Below are positions 15,352 to 60,121 of a stretch of 64,000 nt of DNA, in pieces. How positions within the stretch are numbered: position 1 is the first letter of the stretch; each line of letters starts with the position of its first letter. The stretch spans positions 240,768 through 304,767 of the forward strand of contig JBAZXC010000002.1 of assembly GCA_041660065.1 (NCBI GenBank), read 5' to 3'. The notes under the pieces are model-generated. The model did not search any database. It saw only the letters and a program-made list of their open reading frames with translations, and was not told the DNA's origin. Made by a program: the position numbers and the translations under genes. Source of the stretch: Parcubacteria group bacterium. GTDB taxonomy: Bacteria; Patescibacteriota; Minisyncoccia; Moranbacterales; GCA-2747515.

Positions 15352-15662
15352 TGGTGCCGAGGGAGAGAATCGGACTCTCGACACAAGGATTTTCCTTATA
15401 CTGTCTTATGTTTCCATAAGGATTGGACTATATCATTCCCGCTGAGCGGGATTGGGCGCTATTTGCAGGATTATTGTTGGGACTCACCTGCTAGTCTCTA
15501 CTCCTTCCTTAACACTTTATACCCATTAAGGCTTGGATCGGGATTGTCATAATTCTATAAGAACCGTAGATTTCCCCGAATTCACCCAATTTTTCTCACT
15601 CTATATTGCTATAGAGGGGACCGAAAATTCAGTCCTTTGCTCTACCACTGAGCTACCTCGGC
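15352..15662 (-). tRNA. tRNA-Phe (GAA) interrupted by a group I intron (exons 15631..15662 and 15352..15394; CCA encoded)
   Basis: 5' exon GCCGAGGTAGCTCAGTGGTAGAGCAAAGGACT. 3' exon GAAAATCCTTGTGTCGAGAGTCCGATTCTCTCCCTCGGCACCA. Spliced product folds into a canonical cloverleaf with anticodon loop CTGAAAA. Confidence 0.8.
15395..15630 (-). ncRNA. Group I self-splicing intron (236 nt) in the tRNA-Phe anticodon loop, inserted between U33 and G34
   Basis: 5' splice site follows U, with a U.G pair in P1 (exon GGACU pairs with intron IGS GGUCC). The intron ends in omega-G (..UAUAAG|GAAAA). P2 hairpin CUCUAUA-gcaa-UAUAGAG. P3/P4 core AAAUUGGGUGAAUUCGGGGAAAUCUACGGUUC closely resembles the cyanobacterial tRNA-Leu intron core AAAUUGCGGGAAAGGGGUCAACAGCCGUUC. 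P7-like GAGACUA ... UAGUCC. Confidence 0.8.
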
Positions 15663-15757: not shown

Positions 15758-15978
15758 TTTTTATTGAATAGATCCACCAACTTATTTCATATGAATGTTG
15801 TTTTTTCTTTTATATAATGAATTTTTGACAAAAAACTTCTGTCATTCTGAACTTGTTTCAGAATCTCAAAACTATGGCTTATGTAGATGCTGAAACAAGT
15901 TCAGCATGACATAGATATTAAATGAGATCAACAAATATCATTGTACAATATTTTTTTATTTCTTCCAACCTCTTCTCG

Positions 15979-46637: not shown

Positions 46638-47558
46638 TTATGCGATTGATGCAAATGTTTCTTTTAACACTTCCGCCGTATGTTGCAAGTTTTTTTGCTC
46701 CTCTTCATTTAATTCTATACATAAGCGTCCTTCTATGCCATTACAACCCACAACTGCCGGCATACTGAGACACACATCATCAATACCATACGCACCTTCT
46801 ATTGCATGTGATACGGGAAGAACAGACTTTTTATCATGTACGATCGTTTGAACGAGGTGTGCACAACCAGCGCCAATTGCATAATATGTTGATTGTTTCC
46901 CCGCAATGATCGTATATGCCGCATTTTTTGCCTCTTCAAAAATTTTTGTTTTATCATCATCATTGAGACGATTGCAAGTCCCCAGTTTCATGTTGCCAAT
47001 CGATGCCATACTCCAAACAGGAAACTCGCTGTCTCCATGCTCGCCAAGAATATATGCATGAATACTTTTTGGATCGATATCCATCTTTAAGCCGATAAGC
47101 TCGCGAAAACGTGCCGAATCAAGGAGTGTTCCTGTGCCCATGATTCGATCCTTTTTATCGGGAAAGAGTGATATCGCCAGCTTCGTAAGCACATCCACAG
47201 GATTTGTGACCATGACAAGGATTGTGTTGGGATTTTTTTCAAATACTTGTGGCACAATACCTTTGATAATTGCCGCGTTTTTTTGCACGAGATCAAGACG
47301 CGTCTCACCGGGCTTCTGTGCCGCGCCACATGTGATCACCACCACATCACTATCAGCACAATCATCATATGTGCCCACCTTCACATCCGTGCGCCCCACA
47401 AACGGCACAGAATGTTGCAGATCCATCACCTGCGCCTTCACAAGCTCTTCGTTGAGATCCATCAACGCAATTTCTTCCACAATATCCTGTAATACCAAAC
47501 TATACGCCACAGTGGACCCCACCATCCCCGCCCCAATGATCGTCACTTTGTTTTTCAT
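46638..47558 (-). CDS. ldh: L-lactate dehydrogenase
   Basis: VTIIGAGMVGS Rossmann. GAAQKPGETRLDL (Gln, LDH-type specificity). ILGEHGDS. Confidence 0.85.
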   Translation of the reverse strand: MKNKVTIIGAGMVGSTVAYSLVLQDIVEEIALMDLNEELVKAQVMDLQHSVPFVGRTDVKVGTYDDCADSDVVVITCGAAQKPGETRLDLVQKNAAIIKGIVPQVFEKNPNTILVMVTNPVDVLTKLAISLFPDKKDRIMGTGTLLDSARFRELIGLKMDIDPKSIHAYILGEHGDSEFPVWSMASIGNMKLGTCNRLNDDDKTKIFEEAKNAAYTIIAGKQSTYYAIGAGCAHLVQTIVHDKKSVLPVSHAIEGAYGIDDVCLSMPAVVGCNGIEGRLCIELNEEEQKNLQHTAEVLKETFASIA

Positions 47559-47657
47559 ATGTTTTTTATATGTAAATTATTTTTTAATTATACCACATTT
47601 TCCAATTCACTTTATAAAATTAAAAGCAGTAATGTTTCTTACTGCTTTCGATTTTTT

Positions 47658-47819
47658 TCATATTTCCTCCTTTTTCCAGGATTTGTCCTGACGATTATAA
47701 GCTCTTTTACCTTGTGGTGTTCCGTGTGCACCACCACGATGACGCAGGGTTTCCACCGTTTCCGCGTGCAGTTTTACCGGCACACGCTCCAAAACAAACA
47801 CAAGCTTCTTTCTTTTCAT
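47658..47819 (-). CDS. Small basic protein (53 aa), hypothetical
   Basis: MKRKKLVFVLERVPVKLHAETVETLRHRGGAHGTPQGKRAYNRQDKSWKKEEI. Below the ORF-track size cutoff. Followed on the minus strand by a perfect terminator AAGCAGTAA-gaaacat-TACTGCTT then T-rich sequence (47622..47650). Confidence 0.4.
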   Translation of the reverse strand: MKRKKLVFVLERVPVKLHAETVETLRHRGGAHGTPQGKRAYNRQDKSWKKEEI

Positions 47820-47974
47820 TTCCTTTCTCCTTTTTTAGTTAGGATAAACAACATTTTCTTGTAAAATTTTTGTCTCACATTTTGAGTCACCTTTTTCATT
47901 GTCAAATGATATTGTGGATCATCATATGGTCGGGGTATATACATTATTTTCATAATTTTACATTAATATTCCCT

Positions 47975-48050
47975 CTAAGAAACCTCTTGCCAATAAAGTT
48001 TTTTAGAGAGAAGGGATCGCTGTAAATATACAACGATCCCCCTATAGAAC
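47975..48050. repeat. Nested hairpin repeat of the CCCTCTA...TAGAGAG family with inner GGGATCG...CGATCCC stem
   Basis: CCCTCTAAGAAACCTC...TTTTTTAGAGAGAAGG outer arms. Inner stem GGGATCGCTGTAAATATACAACGATCCCC. Confidence 0.5.
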
Positions 48051-48057
48051 ATCCAAC

Positions 48058-48348
48058 CTAACTAGCTGGTAAAAACTCCATATTATTGAACTCATCCATA
48101 TTTTTAAAACGAATAAAATATGGATGAAAGTGCCTCGGCATTCTCCGCGGTCCGGCAGGTTGCTGTGCAAAGATAAAATCCTTGCGCTCAGCGACCCTGC
48201 GAATATCGACAAGATAATAGACATTCTCGCGAATTTCATCTGCAGGTACAGATCCTTCTGTTGCTGCAGGAATCACGTGAACGACTTTTCCGTTCACATA
48301 AACCGTCACAACTTTTAGGATCAAATTTACTATCGTAATTTTTTCCAT
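48058..48348 (-). CDS. Hypothetical protein
   Basis: 96-aa ORF. No motif recognised. Confidence 0.35.
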   Translation of the reverse strand: MEKITIVNLILKVVTVYVNGKVVHVIPAATEGSVPADEIRENVYYLVDIRRVAERKDFIFAQQPAGPRRMPRHFHPYFIRFKNMDEFNNMEFLPAS

Positions 48349-48397
48349 GACGTTCTCCTGTGTTGTATTATTGAACTTAACTGCGTGATATTTTCCC

Positions 48398-48475
48398 TCT
48401 ACAATATTTCTTTTTTTGTCATTCCGGACTTGATCCGGAATCTTAAAAAAATATTGTAGAGAGAGATGAGAAGGT
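48398..48475. repeat. Nested hairpin element: outer CCCTCTACAATATTT/AAATATTGTAGAGAGAG arms enclosing GTCATTCCGGAC-ttga-TCCGGAATC
   Basis: Same architecture as 51605..51685, which has outer CCCTCTAAAATATTT/AAATATTTTAGAGAGAGG arms and an inner stem carrying compensatory changes. Confidence 0.65.
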
Positions 48476-48695
48476 ATAGATTTCTACACCTTCTCATCAG
48501 CCACATTCTTTCCCTGTGGCACGGGGACATTGTTCTTCCGGGCTGCAGCACGAATCGCACTGCCCAGAGAAACAGTTAACGGTTTACTCGGCCGGCACGT
48601 ACGCTGGCGGAGCTCCTTTGCCGGGATAAAGCCAACTATTTTTGCCATTAACCGACCTCCTTTGGTTAAATTTCACACGCACATTATGTAGCGTG

Positions 48696-48783
48696 TGTAC
48701 TACATTCATCAGCTTTTTTTACGTGGGCTTCCTCCACAGTATACGTCCGTTAATTTTCAAAGCCGGACGGAGGATTTCTCTCC
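48696..48783. repeat. ~85-bp structured repeat, copy 1 of 3 (also 51536..51615 and 52768..52850)
   Basis: TCATCAGCTTTTTTTACGTGGGCTTCCTCCAC...[CGTCCG-loop-CGGACG]...GAGGATTTCTC. Copy 2 has GGTCGG/CCGACC in place of the inner stem, a compensatory double change. Confidence 0.7.
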
Positions 48784-48978
48784 TCAGTCGGGGTTGCATC
48801 TGGGACATGAAACATCATCCCAGAGACTAAACAGACGTCCGCATTCCGCGCAGAGCCTGTCCCCCTCATGCACATATGCCAAGTGATCAACCCACATCTG
48901 CGGGTTATCACTTTTCTTGGCACGAGACAATCGCTGTCGGCGACGTCTCTCCTGAGATTCTATTTTTTTATCTCTCAT
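48784..48978 (-). CDS. Small zinc-ribbon protein, hypothetical
   Basis: 64 aa, Arg-rich N-terminus, CAECG...CPRC. Overlaps the upstream ORF by 11 nt. Repeat copy 1 begins immediately after the stop. Confidence 0.4.
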   Translation of the reverse strand: MRDKKIESQERRRRQRLSRAKKSDNPQMWVDHLAYVHEGDRLCAECGRLFSLWDDVSCPRCNPD

Positions 48979-49309
48979 GATCCACCTCCTCAGGTGTTGA
49001 GATAGAACCGGGGTGAAAAGTGCCGCGTTTCCCTTTCACGGAAACATGCCCATCCATCGTTATCGAACCAACGATTGATGGCGTCTTTTCACCTCTCACA
49101 TAACAGATGCTTCCAGGAGCAATTCCTCTCGCCTTAATCTCAGCGAGACGATTATCGATCACCTGCTGATGAATGATTTTCCCGATTTGTCGGTACAACG
49201 AAAATCGTACCGCGATCGGTATGGCATCAGGATTGAGATGGGGATAATGACTTATTACCACCTTCCGATACCACTCATTTTTCATGACAAAAGTTTTTCC
49301 CATGATCAC
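48968..49309 (-). CDS. Hypothetical protein
   Basis: 113-aa ORF forming an overlapping pair with the zinc-ribbon ORF. Confidence 0.4.
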   Translation of the reverse strand: MIMGKTFVMKNEWYRKVVISHYPHLNPDAIPIAVRFSLYRQIGKIIHQQVIDNRLAEIKARGIAPGSICYVRGEKTPSIVGSITMDGHVSVKGKRGTFHPGSISTPEEVDHER

Positions 49310-49852
49310 TCCTCCGTATTTGATTTTTTTGGTTTTTTCCCTCTAACATTCCACAAATCCAAATTTATGAAATTTTAGAGAAAGGAGATGGTTTTCATTA
49401 AAAACCATCTCCACGTCGTGCATTTGCTCGGGGACGATGATGTGTCGTTTTTCCCTCCGCTTGAATATCTTCTTCTTGAAGATTTTTTTCCTACGAGGCG
49501 CACATACCCCGCGATCCTTCCCATTGTTTTGGGATTGCGAGTGGAAGCTCGCTACTTCAGAAGGCCGGATTAGCCATATTGCTTCTTTGGGTTATGAGGA
49601 GAGTGCTCTCATAATTTACCCCAAAGCCTTACACCGGAGGAACATCATCGCCCCCGTTTCCCTTTTTCAACTGCATCCGGCCAAGATGTCAGTGAAGTGA
49701 GCTTCCAACTCACGATACCGGCATCTCAGGGATGTGATGCCACTCTCTCTGTCATTTCACAAAAATTATGCGCAATGACAGAGAGAGATGAATTGATCTT
49801 TAGCTCGAATTTCTTTTCATATGCCACCCATGGTTGTTTTTGCAAGAGAATT

Positions 49853-49898
49853 ATTTCCCTCTAATATATTACGAATTATCATGAGATATTAGAGGGGA
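49853..49898. repeat. Hairpin repeat of the CCCTCTAATAT...ATATTAGAGGG family
   Basis: TTCCCTCTAATATATTACGAATTATCATGAGATATTAGAGGGGAA. Confidence 0.55.
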
Positions 49899-49914
49899 AT
49901 AATTATTTTTTGAA

Positions 49915-50484
49915 TCAAGTGTGACAATCGATAAATAATATGAAACAATCAAGAGGATATGATTTCAATATTTTTTGAAACCTTTTTTTCCATATCTCAA
50001 ATTCTTTTTCGTTACTTTCACCCACGCGTATAAAATATTGGTCACTTGTAATCATTTTACAATCTGGAGTAAAAATAGCATGTTCAACAAATTCTTCATT
50101 CTTGAGCACATCTTCAATCATACAAACATCATAAACATTCCAATAATCAAACATTCCATGAGGATTTTTATCACGCATAACATAATATCTGCCATTTTCA
50201 ATGCCACTGGATAGATCACAATTCCAATTCTTTATTTTTTCCAAAATTGATTTTTTATTGTTTATATCCGTACTCCCATTCTTCAATATTCTGTCAACCT
50301 CATCCTGAGCATAATAAACCTTATATGGCTTCACCTTTTTGTCTATATCATAATGATTAAGAGGTTTAAAAAGCTTTCCTGTAAAATAATTCATAAAATT
50401 ATACTTGTCATTTTCTATTTTATTTTTTACATCCTCTCTGAGACTAAATTCAAATGGTATTACGGCAACAATTGTATAATGCAT
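49915..50484 (-). CDS. Hypothetical AT-rich protein (foreign-looking)
   Basis: 189 aa. Very low GC relative to its neighbours. No recognised motif. Confidence 0.45.
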   Translation of the reverse strand: MHYTIVAVIPFEFSLREDVKNKIENDKYNFMNYFTGKLFKPLNHYDIDKKVKPYKVYYAQDEVDRILKNGSTDINNKKSILEKIKNWNCDLSSGIENGRYYVMRDKNPHGMFDYWNVYDVCMIEDVLKNEEFVEHAIFTPDCKMITSDQYFIRVGESNEKEFEIWKKRFQKILKSYPLDCFILFIDCHT

Positions 50485-51125
50485 ATTTTTGTCAAAATCT
50501 ATAAACGTAATTACACTATTATTCCTCTAATATCTTACAAAAATATTTTATAAAATATGAGAGAAAAGCGAAGTTTTCTCGTTGAAATAATGATCCTATT
50601 TTATCCAATCCATAGAAACAAAGATTGGACAAAAAAAATAGCGCGTTTCGTGTCACACCTGGCAGCAAATGGTCAGACACGATTGGTGTTTGGAAGAATC
50701 AATATTCTTCCGCGAGGAGAAGTGACTGCCAGATCACACTACCTCTTACACTACAACTTGCACGAGAGTCATTAGATACTCTGCGATTGCTTGTTGCTTT
50801 TGCTTGATTTTGGTATTCTTTTACCAAAATGTTCGCAAGGGATCTCCGTATGTGGAGCGCTACCTCCCACCGACCCCCGGTATTAGCATCATTCATATAT
50901 CGAAAGATACTAATATCGAATGTCGACAGAATATAAATTATTAATGTGTGTATATTTTTCCTCAAATAATTTCAAATAATATTTTAGAAATTAGAGAAAA
51001 GCGAAGTTTTCTCGTTGAAATTTTACAGGATGTGTTGATCCCAACCTTGTTTTTTGCCCGGAATTGTGACAAGGATGTTCCCGTTTGTTTTTCATCGGCT
51101 TGGCGGGAGTCCGATTACGCTTGCG

Positions 51126-51440
51126 TTACTCTGCAGGCTTGGGGATGGCTTTCTTCCCCTTGGCAGGCCCGGTACGACCACTCAGGCTTTTGCCAAACTT
51201 CTCCAAAAACGGTTGATATTGCATCCGCTCTTGGTTCCGCTTGGCCGCCTCAGCTTCGGATTGTTCTAGCCCATAAAAAGGCACGAACTTTCCTTCAGCT
51301 TTTGCCTGCCTGGCGAGCTGTGCCCGACACTTCAGGCACACCGGAGTGGTCACCCACACCCCCTTCTCCTTGCGGAGGGCGAGAGAATGATTGACTGCGG
51401 TGCCATTACCAGCGTGTACTGCACAATAATCTTTTCCCAT
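51126..51440 (-). CDS. Hypothetical small Cys-containing basic protein
   Basis: 104 aa. CAVH...CLKC. Lys/Ala-rich C-terminus. Confidence 0.4.
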   Translation of the reverse strand: MGKDYCAVHAGNGTAVNHSLALRKEKGVWVTTPVCLKCRAQLARQAKAEGKFVPFYGLEQSEAEAAKRNQERMQYQPFLEKFGKSLSGRTGPAKGKKAIPKPAE

Positions 51441-51535
51441 AAGTCACCTCCGTGAAAATGGATTGATCTTGGATGGTTTTTTCGACACTATGCCGAATTT
51501 ATGTCGGTCATCCATACATACCCCGACAGAAATAT

Positions 51536-51615
51536 TTCATCAGCTTTTTTTACGTGGGCTTCCTCCACTTTTAGGTCGGTTAAATATTCAAAACCCGACC
51601 GAGGATTTCTCCCTC
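51536..51615. repeat. ~85-bp structured repeat, copy 2
   Basis: CATCAGCTTTTTTTACGTGGGCTTCCTCCACTTTTAGGTCGGTTAAATATTCAAAACCCGACCGAGGATTTCTCC. Confidence 0.7.
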
Positions 51616-51685
51616 TAAAATATTTCTTATGGATTCCCGATCAGGTCGGGAATGACAGGTAAAAAATATTTTAGAGAGAGGAAAT
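51605..51685. repeat. Nested hairpin element: outer CCCTCTAAAATATTT/AAATATTTTAGAGAGAGG arms enclosing GATTCCCGATCAGGTCGGGAATGAC (minus orientation)
   Basis: Direct read. Inner stem TTCCCGA/TCGGGAA, versus TTCCGGA/TCCGGAA in the 48398 copy. Confidence 0.65.
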
Positions 51686-51803
51686 ATGACATTGCATTAT
51701 TTCCTACTTCTTGTGACATGTGACCGCTTTGTCTGAGCGTTCTGGAGCTTCCCCAGAATATTATTTGTCAGTTTTTACACCCTCATGACATGGAGGGTTT
51801 ACC

Positions 51804-52013
51804 TCATGGAAAAAGGTCGAGGATCGCGATGACTACCTCATCCCGATTATGGGTCATACAAAAATGCTCACGACCCAAACCGTTGATGTAGTACGTTCTC
51901 GAACGAATTCCTTTCCGCAGACCCTTACCACAAAAGAGACAGGAATGATCCTTGCGGTTTCTGACGATCTGGGCATTCATAGCGCCCTTGACTACGTTAG
52001 GAACTCTCCTCAT
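51804..52013 (-). CDS. Small zinc-ribbon-like protein, hypothetical
   Basis: 69 aa. CLFCG...H.C..H. Confidence 0.35.
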   Translation of the reverse strand: MRRVPNVVKGAMNAQIVRNRKDHSCLFCGKGLRKGIRSRTYYINGLGREHFCMTHNRDEVVIAILDLFP

Positions 52014-52767
52014 AGACCCTCCTTGTTATTGATCTGTATTTGTTTAAAATCTCTCTAATACTTCACAAAGGTTTATTTTGAGCATATTGAGACACAAAAA
52101 AACTTCGCAAGAAAATTTATGTCCTTTAGGCTAAATATATTTACTATTTAGATAGCCCGATCTCAACCTTTGCGAAGTTTTAGAGAGAGGAAAGCGTGTG
52201 AGATTTTTTAAAAAAATTCTCACTTAAGCGTTGGCTTTCCGGGCAACGGTAATATTAAACTTCTCATCTGTGCAATCAGACAAGAAGCACATTGCAAAAC
52301 GTCGATAACGTTTTGCAATGCCCACAGAGTTTCTTAGTCATCTGTGGGTAGTGTGTGAAAAAATAGTGAACTAGATTGATCATGATAACCGAGTTTGCTA
52401 TAACTTCACTTTAGTTTGATTTTAAGGCACGTTTCTTGTGCCAAGGGAGACCATCTCCCTCATCAAACAGCCCGCCTGCCCCATATCAACGGTTCTTGGT
52501 ATAAACCAACCATCTCTAAGAAAGATGGAGGAGTTTGGCTCTGCACGCCTACACACTGCGCTCCGCACGCCTTTATAAATAGGTTATATACAACCTATCA
52601 CTCGTGTGTATTATCCCAATGCTATAAAGCGACAGGGATTATTAATCGCGTCTTGCTATTACACAAGGAATTCATATTTTTGGGTATTTCCCTCTAATAT
52701 CTCACAAAATATTATATGAGATCTTAGAGAGAAGAGATATTGATATGATAAATAATATCTCTACAAC

Positions 52768-52850
52768 GAGTTTCATCAGCTTTTTTTACGTGGGCTTCCT
52801 CCACAGTATACGTCCGTTAAACATTAAAGCCGGACGGCGGATTTCTCCCC
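52768..52850. repeat. ~85-bp structured repeat, copy 3
   Basis: TCATCAGCTTTTTTTACGTGGGCTTCCTCCACAGTATACGTCCGTTAAACATTAAAGCCGGACGGCGGATTTCTCC. Confidence 0.7.
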
Positions 52851-52867
52851 GCGGGTTGATACTATAA

Positions 52868-53104
52868 CTACGGAACGATCACGCCATATGTTGCTAATCT
52901 GGCGTGGAGATCATGGATCAGATCCTTGGAAGAAGCTTCAATCCGAATCTCGCCATGATGACCAATCTCACAGCTAATCCATTTTTCCTGCACAAAACAG
53001 CGATGTGCAGATGGTGCTTCGAGATCAATATCCTTATGGCATCGCGGACACCTACCCATAAGGCCGATACCCACAAGCCTTCCAATCCGTTTCATTTCAA
53101 TCAT
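52868..53104 (-). CDS. Small zinc-ribbon protein, hypothetical
   Basis: 78 aa. CPRCH...HRC...C..GHH. Repeat copy 3 lies 17 nt after its stop. Confidence 0.4.
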   Translation of the reverse strand: MIEMKRIGRLVGIGLMGRCPRCHKDIDLEAPSAHRCFVQEKWISCEIGHHGEIRIEASSKDLIHDLHARLATYGVIVP

Positions 53105-53129
53105 GGTAATCCCCCTAGTTAATTTATTG

Positions 53130-53258
53130 TAATATTCCCCTCGTTTCTTCCTAAAAATCTGTCATTCTGGACATGATTCGGAATTATGGATCAGTGTTTC
53201 ATGTTATTAAAGATCCTGAATCGCGCTCAGGATGACAAGAGCGCTTTTAAGAATAAAC
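53130..53258. repeat. Composite hairpin element: outer CCCTCGTTTCTTC/AAGAATAAACGAGGG arms enclosing two GTCAT...GGAATC-family hairpins
   Basis: Inner hairpins GTCATTCTGGACATGATTCGGAATT and GATCCTGAATCGCGCTCAGGATGAC. Confidence 0.55.
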
Positions 53259-53712
53259 GAGGGAAATATTAAATTGTTAAAGAAAATGAGAGAAATATCT
53301 TTAGTTCATTTAAATTATTGTACTTTTACCACCAATAGCTCATCATCACTGATAAGTAACGGCTTGGTGTGCCTGTAATACATGTGAACTGGTTTCTTGT
53401 GAAAAATGGTCGATTATATATTACTAAAAACCTATATTTCACTTATATTGTCACATGTATTACAACCATTCTGCCGATTGGATGTACTTACACCCTCCCG
53501 CACAGATCAGTCTTATGTCAAAGTAAAATAACTATCTTTGTTGTGCTACAGCCCTGTGTCATCTCGATCACTTCACTGTAACAACATAGTATATCATGCC
53601 AAAATTATTTTGTCAAGTGTCACTGACAATATATAGACATACACGCATTATTATTCTAATTTAAGGCTTTTTTTAAATTTTTATAAGATAATTCGCGTGG
53701 ACATTTTTAAAA

Positions 53713-53737
53713 ATGATGGCGTGATTTACGCCATCAT
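53713..53737. promoter_or_regulatory. Perfect 10-bp-arm palindrome (ATGATGGCGT-gattt-ACGCCATCAT) about 58 bp upstream of the -35; candidate operator
   Basis: Direct read. Not followed by a T-run, so unlikely to be a terminator. Confidence 0.4.
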
Positions 53738-53794
53738 GCAAAATTTACCGATGGATACGCCGTGCAGAGTTCCACACTGACCTGTTCACGGGTA

Positions 53795-53823
53795 TTGACA
53801 ATTATTTAAAACCATGCTATAGT
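53795..53823 (+). promoter_or_regulatory. Near-consensus sigma-70 promoter
   Basis: TTGACA, 17-nt spacer, TATAGT. Confidence 0.7.
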
Positions 53824-53829
53824 GTATCT

Positions 53830-54258
53830 TGGCTATGGCAGGAACAATATTTCTGTCTATCCGACGAAACATTGTTCTTTAAACATAAACCGCAACCCCT
53901 CACAAGCAAGAGGTTGCACAGAAGGAAGAGGCGTTACACAAGAGAGATTGGCTTTCTTGCGTAGCAAAGCTTTTAACTGGCAACCTTAACGTGGAGGTGT
54001 TGCTATGGGTTGTTGATATAGACCAAATTGGACCGTGAATGCCTCGTCTCGCTTGTTTAGGAGATGAGGTGTCCAAGACTTCCAATTGGTTTCTATTGAC
54101 GATTCATAAAAAAATATGAAGGAGAACATCATGGGTCTGTAGCCTGTATTGTTGAGCAATTTTCACAATCAACAAAATCCGTTGAAGAAAATTCATGAGT
54201 AAAAAATCCATCCAGTATTCTTCTGGATAACTGCAGTAAAATCCTGAGTTGGCTTATA
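53830..54258 (+). ncRNA. Candidate ~430-nt non-coding RNA of unknown class
   Basis: No plus-strand ORF of 60 aa or more between the consensus promoter (53795..53823) and a 12-bp-stem terminator (54221..54260). An early hairpin GAACAAT...ATTGTTC-TTT sits at 53846..53882. No tmRNA, RNase P RNA or SRP RNA hallmarks recognised by eye. Confidence 0.45.
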
Positions 54259-54260
54259 TA
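54221..54260. terminator. Bidirectional rho-independent terminator
   Basis: AATCCTGAGTTG-gcttatatag-CAACTTAGGATT followed by TTTTTTAT. Confidence 0.8.
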
Positions 54261-54265
54261 GCAAC

Positions 54266-55015
54266 TTAGGATTTTTTATTACTAACAGCTTTAATGGCTA
54301 ATTTAAAAATAGATTTTAAGGTTTCAGCAATATCTTTATTTTCTATAATTATTCCAATTTTGTCGCGATAGGATGTTAGACGAATTTTGTCTTTGTAGAC
54401 AGCAATGTCTCCAGGAAATATATAATCTGTCTTGTTTATTTTAATTCGAGTGTTGTTTTTATCACTTTCCAATGTTGATTTTTCAGAATTATAAAGAGCT
54501 CTTACACTCGATTTATTTTTTAATCGTATCCGTTTAAGTTTTTCATTTTCTTCTTTTGATATGAAATTGTCCATTTCATCCTTTGAAAAGGCTAACCACA
54601 TAGGCTCATCCTTTGTAAAATCAAAGCTTGAACTTGCCATTCGCATAATTCCCTCTTTCCCTAAATAATACTTCACAATCGGTTTTTTGATACTGGCGCT
54701 ATTGATGCTGTTTAATTCTTCCACAAGTCCTTTGAGTGTCTGTTTTTTTTGTTCTATAACTTGCTTTTGCTTTTCTAGGATGTTTTCCAGCTGTGCAGGA
54801 TCCTCCGGGACAAACATTTGCTTTTTTTCCTCATTTGATGCACTGACGAGACCGATCTTCATGAGATTTTCCAATGTAAAATACGTCGTTGCTCGATTGA
54901 CACCGGACTTTTTGGCGATCTCTGCCGCACTTCCCTGTCCCAATTCCAATGTAGCAATGTACACTTTTGCCTCTTTGTCATTTAGACCGATTTCTTCAAG
55001 TTTTTTTGCAAGCAT
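54266..55015 (-). CDS. TrmB-family transcriptional regulator (second copy)
   Basis: N-terminal wHTH: IGLNDKEAKVYIATLELGQGSAAEIAKKSGVNRATTYFTLENLMKIGLV. Confidence 0.75.
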   Translation of the reverse strand: MLAKKLEEIGLNDKEAKVYIATLELGQGSAAEIAKKSGVNRATTYFTLENLMKIGLVSASNEEKKQMFVPEDPAQLENILEKQKQVIEQKKQTLKGLVEELNSINSASIKKPIVKYYLGKEGIMRMASSSFDFTKDEPMWLAFSKDEMDNFISKEENEKLKRIRLKNKSSVRALYNSEKSTLESDKNNTRIKINKTDYIFPGDIAVYKDKIRLTSYRDKIGIIIENKDIAETLKSIFKLAIKAVSNKKS

Positions 55016-58943: not shown

Positions 58944-59346
58944 AATTATTTGTTTCAGATAATAATCCCGTAATATTTGTCATCAACTGTCTTTACCCTC
59001 AAATCCAGTTACAAACATTGTGTTTTGGCGGAAAAAGAAAGAAGTAAGAAAAAAATTCCTCACCCCTCATTGTCCGTAGAATAATTATAGCACATAATTA
59101 TTTTTATGAAAAGGGTAACATATCCACAGAATACATAAACATACTATATGTTGTGCTTTACCATTTATACCTACCACAAGTAGATTTTTCATATTGACAT
59201 GAAACTTTTTATGTTTCGTTTATAAATAAAATAATATTTTTCTCTTATAAAAATTTCCTTCCTGCATATTTTTTATAATTAACAACAAAATATACATTTT
59301 GTCAAGTATTTAAACTTGGCCAAAAAATATTATTCAAACACTCCCC

Positions 59347-59960
59347 ATTGTTCCACGTGGAACAATATATCTGTTTTTTTATAAATCATTACAAATGATT
59401 TATAGTACGATGTCTTTTATACAGATTCTGTAAAATAACAAATTTTTCTATCATAAATACAAAGTTATCTCATTTTTATTTTGTTCCACGTGGAACAAAA
59501 TGTATTGCATACGACTTTTTTGCAAAAAATTCAATAAGGTTGCCAAGTTGCAATTGTTCCACGTGGAACAATTGCAAAAATTTTCACATATATTATAACA
59601 AAATACACTAAAAAATATCATGATCTGCACATTTTGTTCCACGTGGAACAAAATATTTTCATGATAGATCTATATACAAAAATATTTTTCCGGTATCAAA
59701 GAGGGAAATAGCCCGACGTTTGATTATAAAAAATACTGAATGTTCCACGTGGAACAAAAAATTATACAGACTTTATAAATAAATAGGCATATTTACTATA
59801 TAAATCGATTTCAATATCTTACCAAAGAAAAATTATATGAAAATTGGTTCTAAAAATTGTTCCACGTGGAACAATTGCGGTAAATCTGTACAAACATTTT
59901 ATATTACGCCAGCATTATGTTTACAATATATAAAAAATTATATTGTTCCACGTGGAACAA
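59347..59960. repeat. Array of seven 18-20-bp perfect palindromes TTGTTCCACGTGGAACAA (parS-like, TGTTCCAC half-sites), spaced 71-131 bp, in an AT-rich ORF-free region upstream of nrdD
   Basis: Copies centred near 59356, 59489, 59563, 59642, 59749, 59866 and 59952. Several extend to 22-30-bp palindromes (e.g. TTGCAATTGTTCCACGTGGAACAATTGCAA). The B. subtilis parS is TGTTCCACGTGAAACA. Confidence 0.75.
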
Positions 59961-60121
59961 AACGGAATTGAAAAGGGAAGTTTGTGGTCTATACTGAAAT
60001 TAATGTATTGACATTATCCTATTTTATGTTGTTATGCTATTTTATATTGATTATCCTCTATTTATATGGTACATTATGAACACTTTTCTATCTATGCATT
60101 ACCATATCAATGCAAAAAATT

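Follow-up and report, generated by a model that had tools for sequence, protein, structure and literature searches.

Cassette arrays of integrons and of clusters of attC sites lacking integrases (CALIN), whose attC sites measure ~57-141 nt and share the consensus RYYYAAC/GTTRRRY, are among the described systems closest to the locus reported here. Another comparison is with the short structured repeats of extragenic DNA known as REP/BIME, BOX and ERIC. These number tens to hundreds per genome, point in either direction and are transcribed together with their neighbours, with possible effects on the stability of the mRNA; RAYT transposases are associated with REP. Further likenesses are found in the antitermination RNAs put of phage HK022 and EAR of Bacillus, in 5' stabiliser stem-loops, and in the ends of insertion sequences (IS) of the IS200/IS605 family. 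Here we describe an element, E, in a 64,000-nt stretch of DNA from the metagenome-assembled genome of a Parcubacteria group bacterium (contig JBAZXC010000002.1, positions 240,768 to 304,767; hereafter the window). E is ~85-90 nt long and consists, on the gene strand, of three consecutive short hairpins (H0, H1 and H2) and then a single-stranded tail. It is a previously undescribed element of a few Parcubacteria (candidate phyla), its base-pairing is under selection, and it is almost certainly functional. The reading that we prefer, tentatively and at a little short of an even chance, is that E may be a cis-acting RNA domain recognised by sequence and shape, most likely by a protein, and affecting the processing, stability or translation of the adjacent cassette RNA.

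The locus is like an integron or CALIN in being a chromosomal array of mostly single, co-oriented orphan open reading frames (ORFs) and ORF-less units beside a strong promoter, and in that its unit content differs between related genomes. E itself differs from attC in having three separate 4-6-bp hairpins and a single-stranded tail, in occurring at a minority of junctions and in standing either 5' or 3' of ORFs; a GTTAAAY string is present on the opposite strand of the H1 loop, with no paired partner. Like REP/BIME, BOX and ERIC, E is a short structured extragenic repeat found after stop codons or between genes and homogenised within genomes. It differs from REP/BIME in its 1-4 copies, confined to one array and one orientation, and in its long invariant single-stranded segment, and no transposase domain was found. 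With put, EAR and the stabiliser stem-loops it shares a size in the range of ~65-120 nt, consecutive hairpins, a position within an operon regardless of ORF identity, the presence of more than one copy and, by analogy, a proposed action in cis, whereas it has no sequence or Rfam similarity to them and is not followed by ordinary terminators. The likeness to IS200/IS605 ends lies in a hairpin with variable pairs next to a conserved single-stranded sequence, with sharp boundaries on one strand; the difference lies in the lack of TnpA/TnpB, of a left-/right-end pair and of a conserved target tetranucleotide.

Compensated hairpins and an invariant tail

All copies of E and all genes of the array region lie on the minus strand, and E is therefore described on this (gene) strand. 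The window holds three copies, with extents set by a covariance model:

48699..48788, minus: E copy 1; it opens with TGA, which is the stop codon of ORF64
48785-48770, 48769-48744 and 48737-48723, minus: H0 (GAGGA/TCCTC), H1 (CGTCCG/CGGACG) and H2 (GTGG/CCAC) of copy 1
48722-48705, minus: invariant tail of copy 1, GTAAAAAAAGCTGATGAA
51530..51619, minus: E copy 2
51615-51601, 51600-51574, 51568-51554 and 51553-51536, minus: H0 (GAGGG/TCCTC), H1 (GGTCGG/CCGACC), H2 and tail of copy 2
52766..52855, minus: E copy 3, followed by a hairpin and then a palindrome, with no ORF
52852-52837, 52836-52811, 52804-52790 and 52789-52772, minus: H0 (GCGGG/TCCGC), H1 (CGTCCG/CGGACG), H2 and tail of copy 3

A preliminary description of this stretch had reported three ~85-bp repeats; these are real copies, the starts of which had been placed 9 nt (copy 1) and 4 nt (copy 3) off. 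Its inner stem, CGTCCG/CGGACG in copies 1 and 3 and GGTCGG/CCGACC in copy 2, is exactly as claimed. The three copies share a 79-nt core in direct orientation (48705-48783, 51536-51614 and 52772-52850), in which copy 2 is 77% and copy 3 is 92% identical to copy 1. A 33-nt block (TTCATCAGCTTTTTTTACGTGGGCTTCCTCCAC on the plus strand) is identical in all three, and a 28-mer taken from it occurs three times as compared to 0.00 expected from 100 shuffles.

From the first 13 copies a covariance model was built and run on contigs around homologs of the neighbouring proteins, and 21 distinct copies are now known from 11 independent assemblies of related Parcubacteria. In these, H1 is paired in 100% of 126 cells. 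It has 6 bp with an invariant G-U-C/G-A-C, and its loop starts with GCUUU and ends with UUAAC. Four of the six pairs never change (G-C, U-A, C-G and G-C), while pairs 1 and 5 vary: pair 1 is CG in 13 copies, GC in four, UA in three and AU in one, and pair 5 is CG in 11, GC in six, UA in three and UG in one. The nine different versions of the stem are all complementary. The covariation score of H1 is 0.204 versus 0.072 in shuffles, none of 500 shuffles reaches 0.204, and slid controls are only 30-51% paired. H2 (GUGG/CCAC) is also paired throughout (100%), with one double change from UA to CG, and H0, a 5-bp hairpin directly 5' of H1, takes the forms GAGGG/UCCUC, GAGGA/UCCUC, GAGGA/UUCUC, GCGGG/UCCGC, GAGAA/UUCUC and GGGAA/UUCCC, with four compensatory versions of the stem among them. 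The fourth of these forms, that of window copy 3, is compensatory relative to the other copies. All three hairpins were recovered by RNAalifold on an independent MAFFT alignment. The tail after H2, GUAAAAAAAGCUGAUGAA, is single-stranded and nearly invariant.

These additional copies vary compensatorily and not randomly, in agreement with the earlier proposal of selection on structure as opposed to simple duplication. The outer TCCTCC/GGAGGA helix proposed with it is replaced by H0, since its first arm pairs locally as H0 in the 21 copies. In copy 3 the arm GGCGGA breaks the outer helix and is compensated by the adjacent CCCCGC; overall, the long-range pairing is broken without compensation in three of 13 copies, and its supposed partner GGAGGA sits in a varying H2 loop (GGAGTA, GGAGAA, GGAGCA or GGAAGA). 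A switch between Shine-Dalgarno and anti-Shine-Dalgarno pairing through GGAGGA is ruled out, as this string varies between copies. E is also not coding: across the copies, no frame of either strand is conserved, each being interrupted or shifted.

The 3' half of E (H2 and tail) is ~95% invariant across genomes, in which the adjacent genes are 66-81% identical in DNA. The higher conservation of the 33-nt block than of neighbouring genes, together with compensatory changes in three helices, shows purifying selection. This bears directly on the view of E as a miniature transposable element, an IS remnant or a neutral, functionless duplication, which would account for a repeat with sharp edges that is identical or nearly so within some genomes. 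That view is extremely improbable and is largely refuted by the covariation, to which the conservation of the block, the restriction to one array per genome and the single orientation can be added. The ends of E, TGAGGAG... and ...GCTGATGAA, are not inverted repeats, the flanks share no target-site duplication, and no transposase is present in any array, so that E is neither a miniature inverted-repeat transposable element nor an IS terminal fragment.

With regard to the strand, all copies point the same way as the array genes. The G.U wobbles at mid-helix positions of H0, and one U.G in H1, can pair on the gene strand only. A promoter also points into the array:

53588..53616, minus: extended -10 promoter TTGACA-17-TGaTATACT, on the same strand as the genes and E

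The promoter lies within a conserved ~300-nt leader upstream of the array and is kept as TTGACA-17-TGnTATACT in four genomes while the spacer varies. Because of the orientation, the G.U pairs and this conserved promoter, E is most simply read as part of the sense transcript. E itself was considered as a signal for starting or ending transcription and rejected. A sigma-70 scan gave no site inside any of the three copies, and by eye the best -35/-10 candidates are TTGAAA and TATACT, 11 nt apart, the latter being absent in half of the copies; comparison by eye with sigma-28 and extracytoplasmic function sigma factor promoters revealed no match to either consensus. None of the three hairpins is followed on the gene strand by the U tract of an intrinsic terminator, and a terminator scan flags only H2 of copy 2, on the opposite strand.

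Distribution of E and its varied partners

E is rare: when 596 Gb of genomes and 241 M metagenome records were scanned for exact 20-mers, only three genuine loci (L001, L002 and L004) were added, along with two chance matches. Each genome has 1-4 copies, and all 21 are confined to one syntenic mini-cassette array per genome; the covariance model found no copy in the remaining ~58 kb of the window or in ~140 kb of sequence flanking the other loci. An origin in phages, plasmids or viruses is rejected, as the respective collections contain no match to E and L029, L003 and L005 are chance k-mer matches. A scan of the whole window against Rfam 15 at gathering thresholds returned tRNAs and one group I intron and nothing at E, and relaxation to an expectation value of <= 1 over 47500-54400 gave only spurious microRNA-precursor matches on palindromes. 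No description of the E motif or of such arrays in Patescibacteria was found in the literature.

The genes and hairpins next to the window copies are:

48784..48978, minus: ORF64, with four Cys and an Arg-rich N-terminus, upstream of copy 1
52868..53104, minus: ORF78, Cys/His-containing, upstream of copy 3 and unrelated to ORF64
51126..51440, minus: ORF104, downstream of copy 2, with 14 homologs among 5.8 billion proteins
48484..48648, minus: ORF54, downstream of copy 1
51502..51528, minus: second H1-type hairpin (TGTCGG...CCGACA), within the ORF104 leader
48676..48699, minus: context-specific hairpin (CACACGC/GCGTGTG) just downstream of copy 1, belonging to the ORF54-type leader
52733..52762, minus: context-specific hairpin (AGAGATATT/AATATCTCT) just downstream of copy 3, abutting the next palindrome

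Copies 1 and 3 do follow the minus-strand ORFs at 48784-48978 and 52868-53104, as first noted, at 0 and 17 nt past the stop codons. These two ORFs had been taken as zinc-ribbon ORFs and as part of a suggested unit of a tiny Cys-rich ORF plus a structured 3' element. However, they are not one family, having only an 18-residue CPRC knuckle in common, at opposite ends of the proteins, and E occurs beside many unrelated ORFs or none. It starts with either the right-arm core of a palindrome (TTAGAGGGAGAAAU...) or TGAGGAG..., the TGA of which is the upstream stop codon in the ORF64 family, in ORF72 of L002 and in ORF92 and ORF71 of L027. The position after an ORF64-family stop codon is seen for window copy 1 and in L006, L009, L010 and L016, and E is also found downstream of the unrelated ORF78, ORF92, ORF71, ORF58 and ORF50, or directly after a palindrome with no upstream ORF. 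On its other side, E precedes ORF104-, ORF54-, ORF53-, ORF69-, ORF49- and ORF76-type genes, or no ORF. It lies upstream of ORF104 in six genomes, while the ORF104 homologs of L012 and L015 have no E, and the ORF54-type leader follows E in four genomes (the same leader and ORF in L006, L009 and L019). The internal ATG of E provides the start codon of ORF53 in L006 only and is ACG in four copies. Altogether at least ten unrelated ORF families stand before or after E, or E stands alone. These varied partners, the ORF104 homologs without E and the limited similarity of ORF64 and ORF78 mean that E does not belong to a zinc-ribbon gene as its 3' partner; rather, it is a module recurring at junctions between interchangeable parts. 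Among the roles suggested earlier, a 3'-untranslated or regulatory RNA comes closest, and a miniature mobile element applies only loosely, in the sense of a module exchanged between cassettes.

The sequence of a conserved domain, context-specific hairpins and then a ribosome-binding site, with the same domain preceding several ORF families, would suit a riboswitch-like sensor in which a conserved aptamer and a variable expression platform control the downstream ORF, and tertiary pairing between loop and tail or between loops is possible. We regard this as very improbable. E has no multi-helix junction and no proven pseudoknot, and no conserved alternative pairing to a ribosome-binding site or terminator exists, bar one invariant 4-bp helix; when E was examined as a riboswitch-type leader, variable hairpins were found to follow it and no conserved switch was found. 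Further, units consisting of E only, or of ORF, E and palindrome, leave nothing to regulate in cis, and the regulated genes are orphans and thus suggest no ligand.

E followed by a hairpin and a palindrome, without an ORF, is represented by window copy 3, L013 (L013_1295), both L027 copies and L014. Having no ORF to serve, these units are what would be expected of a family of small trans-acting RNA genes, which would be freed from the array transcript, for instance by cleavage at palindromes, and would use the tail as a seed or act as a protein sponge. The low copy number (1-4 per genome) and the invariance of the single-stranded tail fit as well. Such a function is nevertheless quite improbable, as E comes without its own promoter or terminator, about two thirds of the copies are fused to a specific leader and ORF, and 9-mers complementary to the tail occur at chance level in the window.

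The similarity among copies follows the genome and not the context. Identity is 85% within genomes versus 80% between genomes, whereas it is 80% for copies with a shared downstream context and 80% for those with an unshared one. The three copies of L009 are identical in sequence in three different contexts, and in L006, L027 and the window the nearest neighbours are also found in the same genome in a different context. This within-genome similarity irrespective of context indicates that E is copied or homogenised between cassettes, and its exchange as a near-identical repeat would explain its position at the junctions of shuffled modules. The H1-type hairpin in the ORF104 leader is kept in homologous ORF104 leaders, where its closing pair covaries (UA/CG/UG). 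Its stem, GUCGG/CCGAC, is as in H1 of E, which hints at a common recognition partner.

The cassette array and its junction palindromes

The setting of E in the window comprises the following features:

47969..53270 (5.3 kb), minus: cassette array with all three copies of E, in which small ORFs and ORF-less units are separated by palindromes
53131-53270, 52688-52733, 52049-52189, 51609-51680, 49855-49898, 49337-49384, 48393-48465 and 47969-48012: array palindromes
near 50524-50588, 50960-51021 and 49743-49787: weaker array palindromes
54266..55015, minus: TrmB/TrmBL2-like DNA-binding protein, which accompanies the array in every genome examined

The palindromes constitute one family, CTCTCTCTAA-GATYTCATAAA...TTTGTGARATG-CTAGAGGGAA, in which a small internal loop separates an outer from an inner helix and the tip measures 3 to ~100 nt. 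They are ~45 nt long, or up to 141 nt in the long forms. There are 11 occurrences of the motif TTAGAGRGR in the window versus 0.8 expected, always inside the array. Arrays with such palindromes were found in the window, L001, L006, L009, L010, L012, L017, L019 and L027. In 27 short forms from nine arrays, 96% of cells are paired, with double changes at nine of 17 pairs, and two positions have conserved U.G wobbles (20 and 24 of 27) that exist on the gene strand only. The palindromes are like attC in combining a conserved structure with varying sequence and in their variable terminal structure. They differ in their length of ~45 nt, in their cores (CTCTAA...TTAGAG or CTCTA...CTAGAG and not RYYYAAC/GTTRRRY) and in the conserved wobbles favouring the sense strand; the base before TTAGAG is G in a minority only, and the conserved AAC/GTT triplets of attC R boxes are not found.

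In all related genomes the array is found downstream of the TrmB-like gene and of the conserved leader, even where the other neighbours of that gene differ, and its cassette content differs between genomes. Arrays of different genomes differ by precise insertions of cassettes at the TTAGAG core, and in a comparison of the window with L006 the ORF69 cassette is inserted exactly between a long palindrome and E. No integrase is present between the TrmB-like gene and Ldh in any locus examined, and no integrase, tyrosine recombinase or HUH-type nuclease was found in the arrays or among the families listed (25 of 59) for the 38 larger ORFs of the window. A hidden recombinase or nuclease domain was looked for in the TrmB-like protein, whose model (predicted local distance difference test, pLDDT, 91) corresponds from end to end to TrmBL2, a chromatin protein of archaea. 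Sequence searches of Pfam, PHROGs, NCBIfam, PADLOC and PDB with the cassette proteins gave nothing, leaving all of them orphans, and the JGI labels 'transposase' and 'rubrerythrin' on homologs are unsupported. A palindromic DNA operator for the TrmB-like protein is rejected as an explanation of E, because symmetric covariation at uncontacted positions would be unexpected and all nine H1 stems are complementary.

The main rival to an RNA function is that E is a single-stranded-DNA recombination site, with a hairpin and single-stranded flank recognised in trans by a recombinase or HUH-type nuclease and marking cassette joins, as in integron attC/attI or IS200/IS605 ends. E always lies at a module boundary with both edges sharp, its 5' end coincides with the palindrome core TTAGAGGG or the look-alike TGAGGAG, its flanks are shuffled combinatorially, and the array is integron-like, with genomes that differ by precise insertions at the core. 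In addition, if the palindrome cluster at 59336-59965 (see below) is an origin, the strand on which the hairpins pair would be the lagging-strand template. We nonetheless hold this to be unlikely. The recombinases and nucleases were sought without success within the scope given above, and the protein accompanying the array is an ordinary TrmBL2/TrmB-like DNA binder. E forms no single long attC-like hairpin with paired R/L boxes, and most junctions are without it. Also, homology breakpoints fall at the edges of E with no fixed internal crossover, and its copies are not flank-dependent chimeras.

Several other observations were made on the array and its surroundings. Between the TrmB-like gene and the array lies ~1 kb of conserved non-coding DNA (53290-54266), which contains a divergent promoter-like site at 53795-53823 (plus), a second TATAAT site at 53442-53413 and a block (53866-54017) that is 79-80% identical in L001, L006 and L010; this region could hold a leader RNA or a small RNA. 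An ORF-less, relatively GC-rich cassette at 49400-49856 (minus) is 74-95% identical to units in L006, L009 and L010, ends in a strong hairpin (49384-49412), has no Rfam match and may be a non-coding RNA; ORF-less units similar to it are at 52230-52690 and 50600-50960. The tip of several long junction palindromes is a hairpin motif, GTCATTCYGRAC..GTYCRGAAT, at 48410-48441, at 53153-53184 and inverted at ~51630-51655. It is found once outside the array (15833-15864) and may be a tiny insertion module. Another short hairpin, GAGAAAACTTCGCTTTTCTC, recurs right before the left core of some palindromes (50541-50588 and 50974-51021 in the window, ~6440 in L006, ~1400 in L013, and in L027), and a related CTTCGC motif is found inside long palindromes. 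The distal array end is marked by a conserved small basic protein with the motif RHRGGAHG...GK..YNR and no family match, the start codon of which is supplied by E in L006. It is located as follows:

47658-47819, minus: small basic protein of the window
4723-5046 in L001, 8932-9090 in L006 and 3193-3423 in L002: the same protein in other loci

Outside the array, five copies of the 18-bp perfect palindrome TTGTTCCACGTGGAACAA are clustered within 630 bp (59336-59965) upstream of nrdD, at the cumulative GC skew minimum; this cluster may be a replication origin, a DnaA-box-like cluster or an operator array. The group I intron (15404-15640, minus; 79.6 bits in Rfam) lies among tRNA genes, and no host gene was identified.

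E as a candidate cis-acting RNA domain

The preferred reading of E as a cis-acting RNA domain draws on its three compensated helices, invariant pairs and tail, single orientation, sense-strand wobbles and flexible position relative to ORFs. E would be a non-coding structured RNA domain on the sense strand of a promoter-driven mini-cassette array and would act in cis within the array transcript as the recognition site of a trans-acting factor, most likely a protein. Through this factor, the RNA of the adjoining cassette would be controlled in its processing, its stability or its translation. As an ~80-nt near-identical repeat, E would pass between cassettes, by copying or exchange, through recombination or gene conversion. 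Where a palindrome stands before E, as that at 51609-51680 does in copy 2, the 5' arm of H0 consists of the same bases as the right arm of the palindrome. H0 can in that case form only with the palindrome opened or cleaved, and this sharing is compatible with a processing model.

Known ribozymes and some other RNA classes were compared with E and rejected. The tail contains CUGAUGA as in a hammerhead, yet the flanking helices are not in the required order, GAAA follows the downstream hairpin in copy 1 only, and no hammerhead was matched by Rfam in 47500-54400 at an expectation value of <= 1. H2 with GUAAAAAAAG superficially resembles P1 and the A-rich linker of the pistol ribozyme; the H2 loop has no covarying partner downstream, Rfam gives no match at the same threshold, and the pistol architecture is not found in E. 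A C/D-box or K-turn reading of CUGAUGA has no supporting architecture and no Rfam match. Kissing of the H1 and H2 loops is compatible with the copies, with one-sided changes only.

A number of points weigh against a cis-acting RNA domain. The sample comes from one narrow clade, and because of within-genome homogenisation the 21 copies are not 21 independent observations. The wobbles fix the strand and not the molecule, as G.T is the most tolerated mismatch in single-stranded DNA, and we infer from sequence that E is transcribed, bound by a factor and able to affect expression. A possible pseudoknot between the H1 loop (GCUUU) and the tail (AAAGC) is 95% compatible, with one-sided changes only and a C.A mismatch in two copies. 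The placement of E 5' of ORFs, 3' of ORFs or between palindromes singles out neither processing, stability nor translation. Finally, no candidate binding protein was identified among the orphan cassette proteins, and the AlphaFold model of ORF104 (pLDDT 60) was too poor for a structure search.

A wider proposal, distinctly unlikely as a whole, is that E and the 45-nt palindromes are the punctuation of an undescribed integrase-less cassette system in candidate-phyla bacteria. Its parts would be a TrmBL2-like protein, a conserved ~300-nt leader in which a strong promoter lies, and cassettes whose gain and loss take place precisely at TTAGAG cores. E would then be a new, portable class of functional RNA that travels from cassette to cassette, serving perhaps as a signal for processing or self-cleavage or as a domain for antitermination or stabilisation. 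The array setting, with its sense-strand-biased junction hairpins and no visible integrase, may be a more important discovery than E itself.

Candidate-phyla bacteria have tiny genomes and very few characterised non-coding elements. E adds a compact RNA-type module with unusually clean covariation, more conserved than the surrounding genes and confined to a hypervariable, integron-like array of orphan mini-genes without a visible integrase. Should E serve as a signal for protein recognition, processing or stabilisation, it would provide a handle on the expression of such arrays. If E or the palindromes are recombination sites, they would represent a new way of cassette shuffling in a major uncultured lineage.

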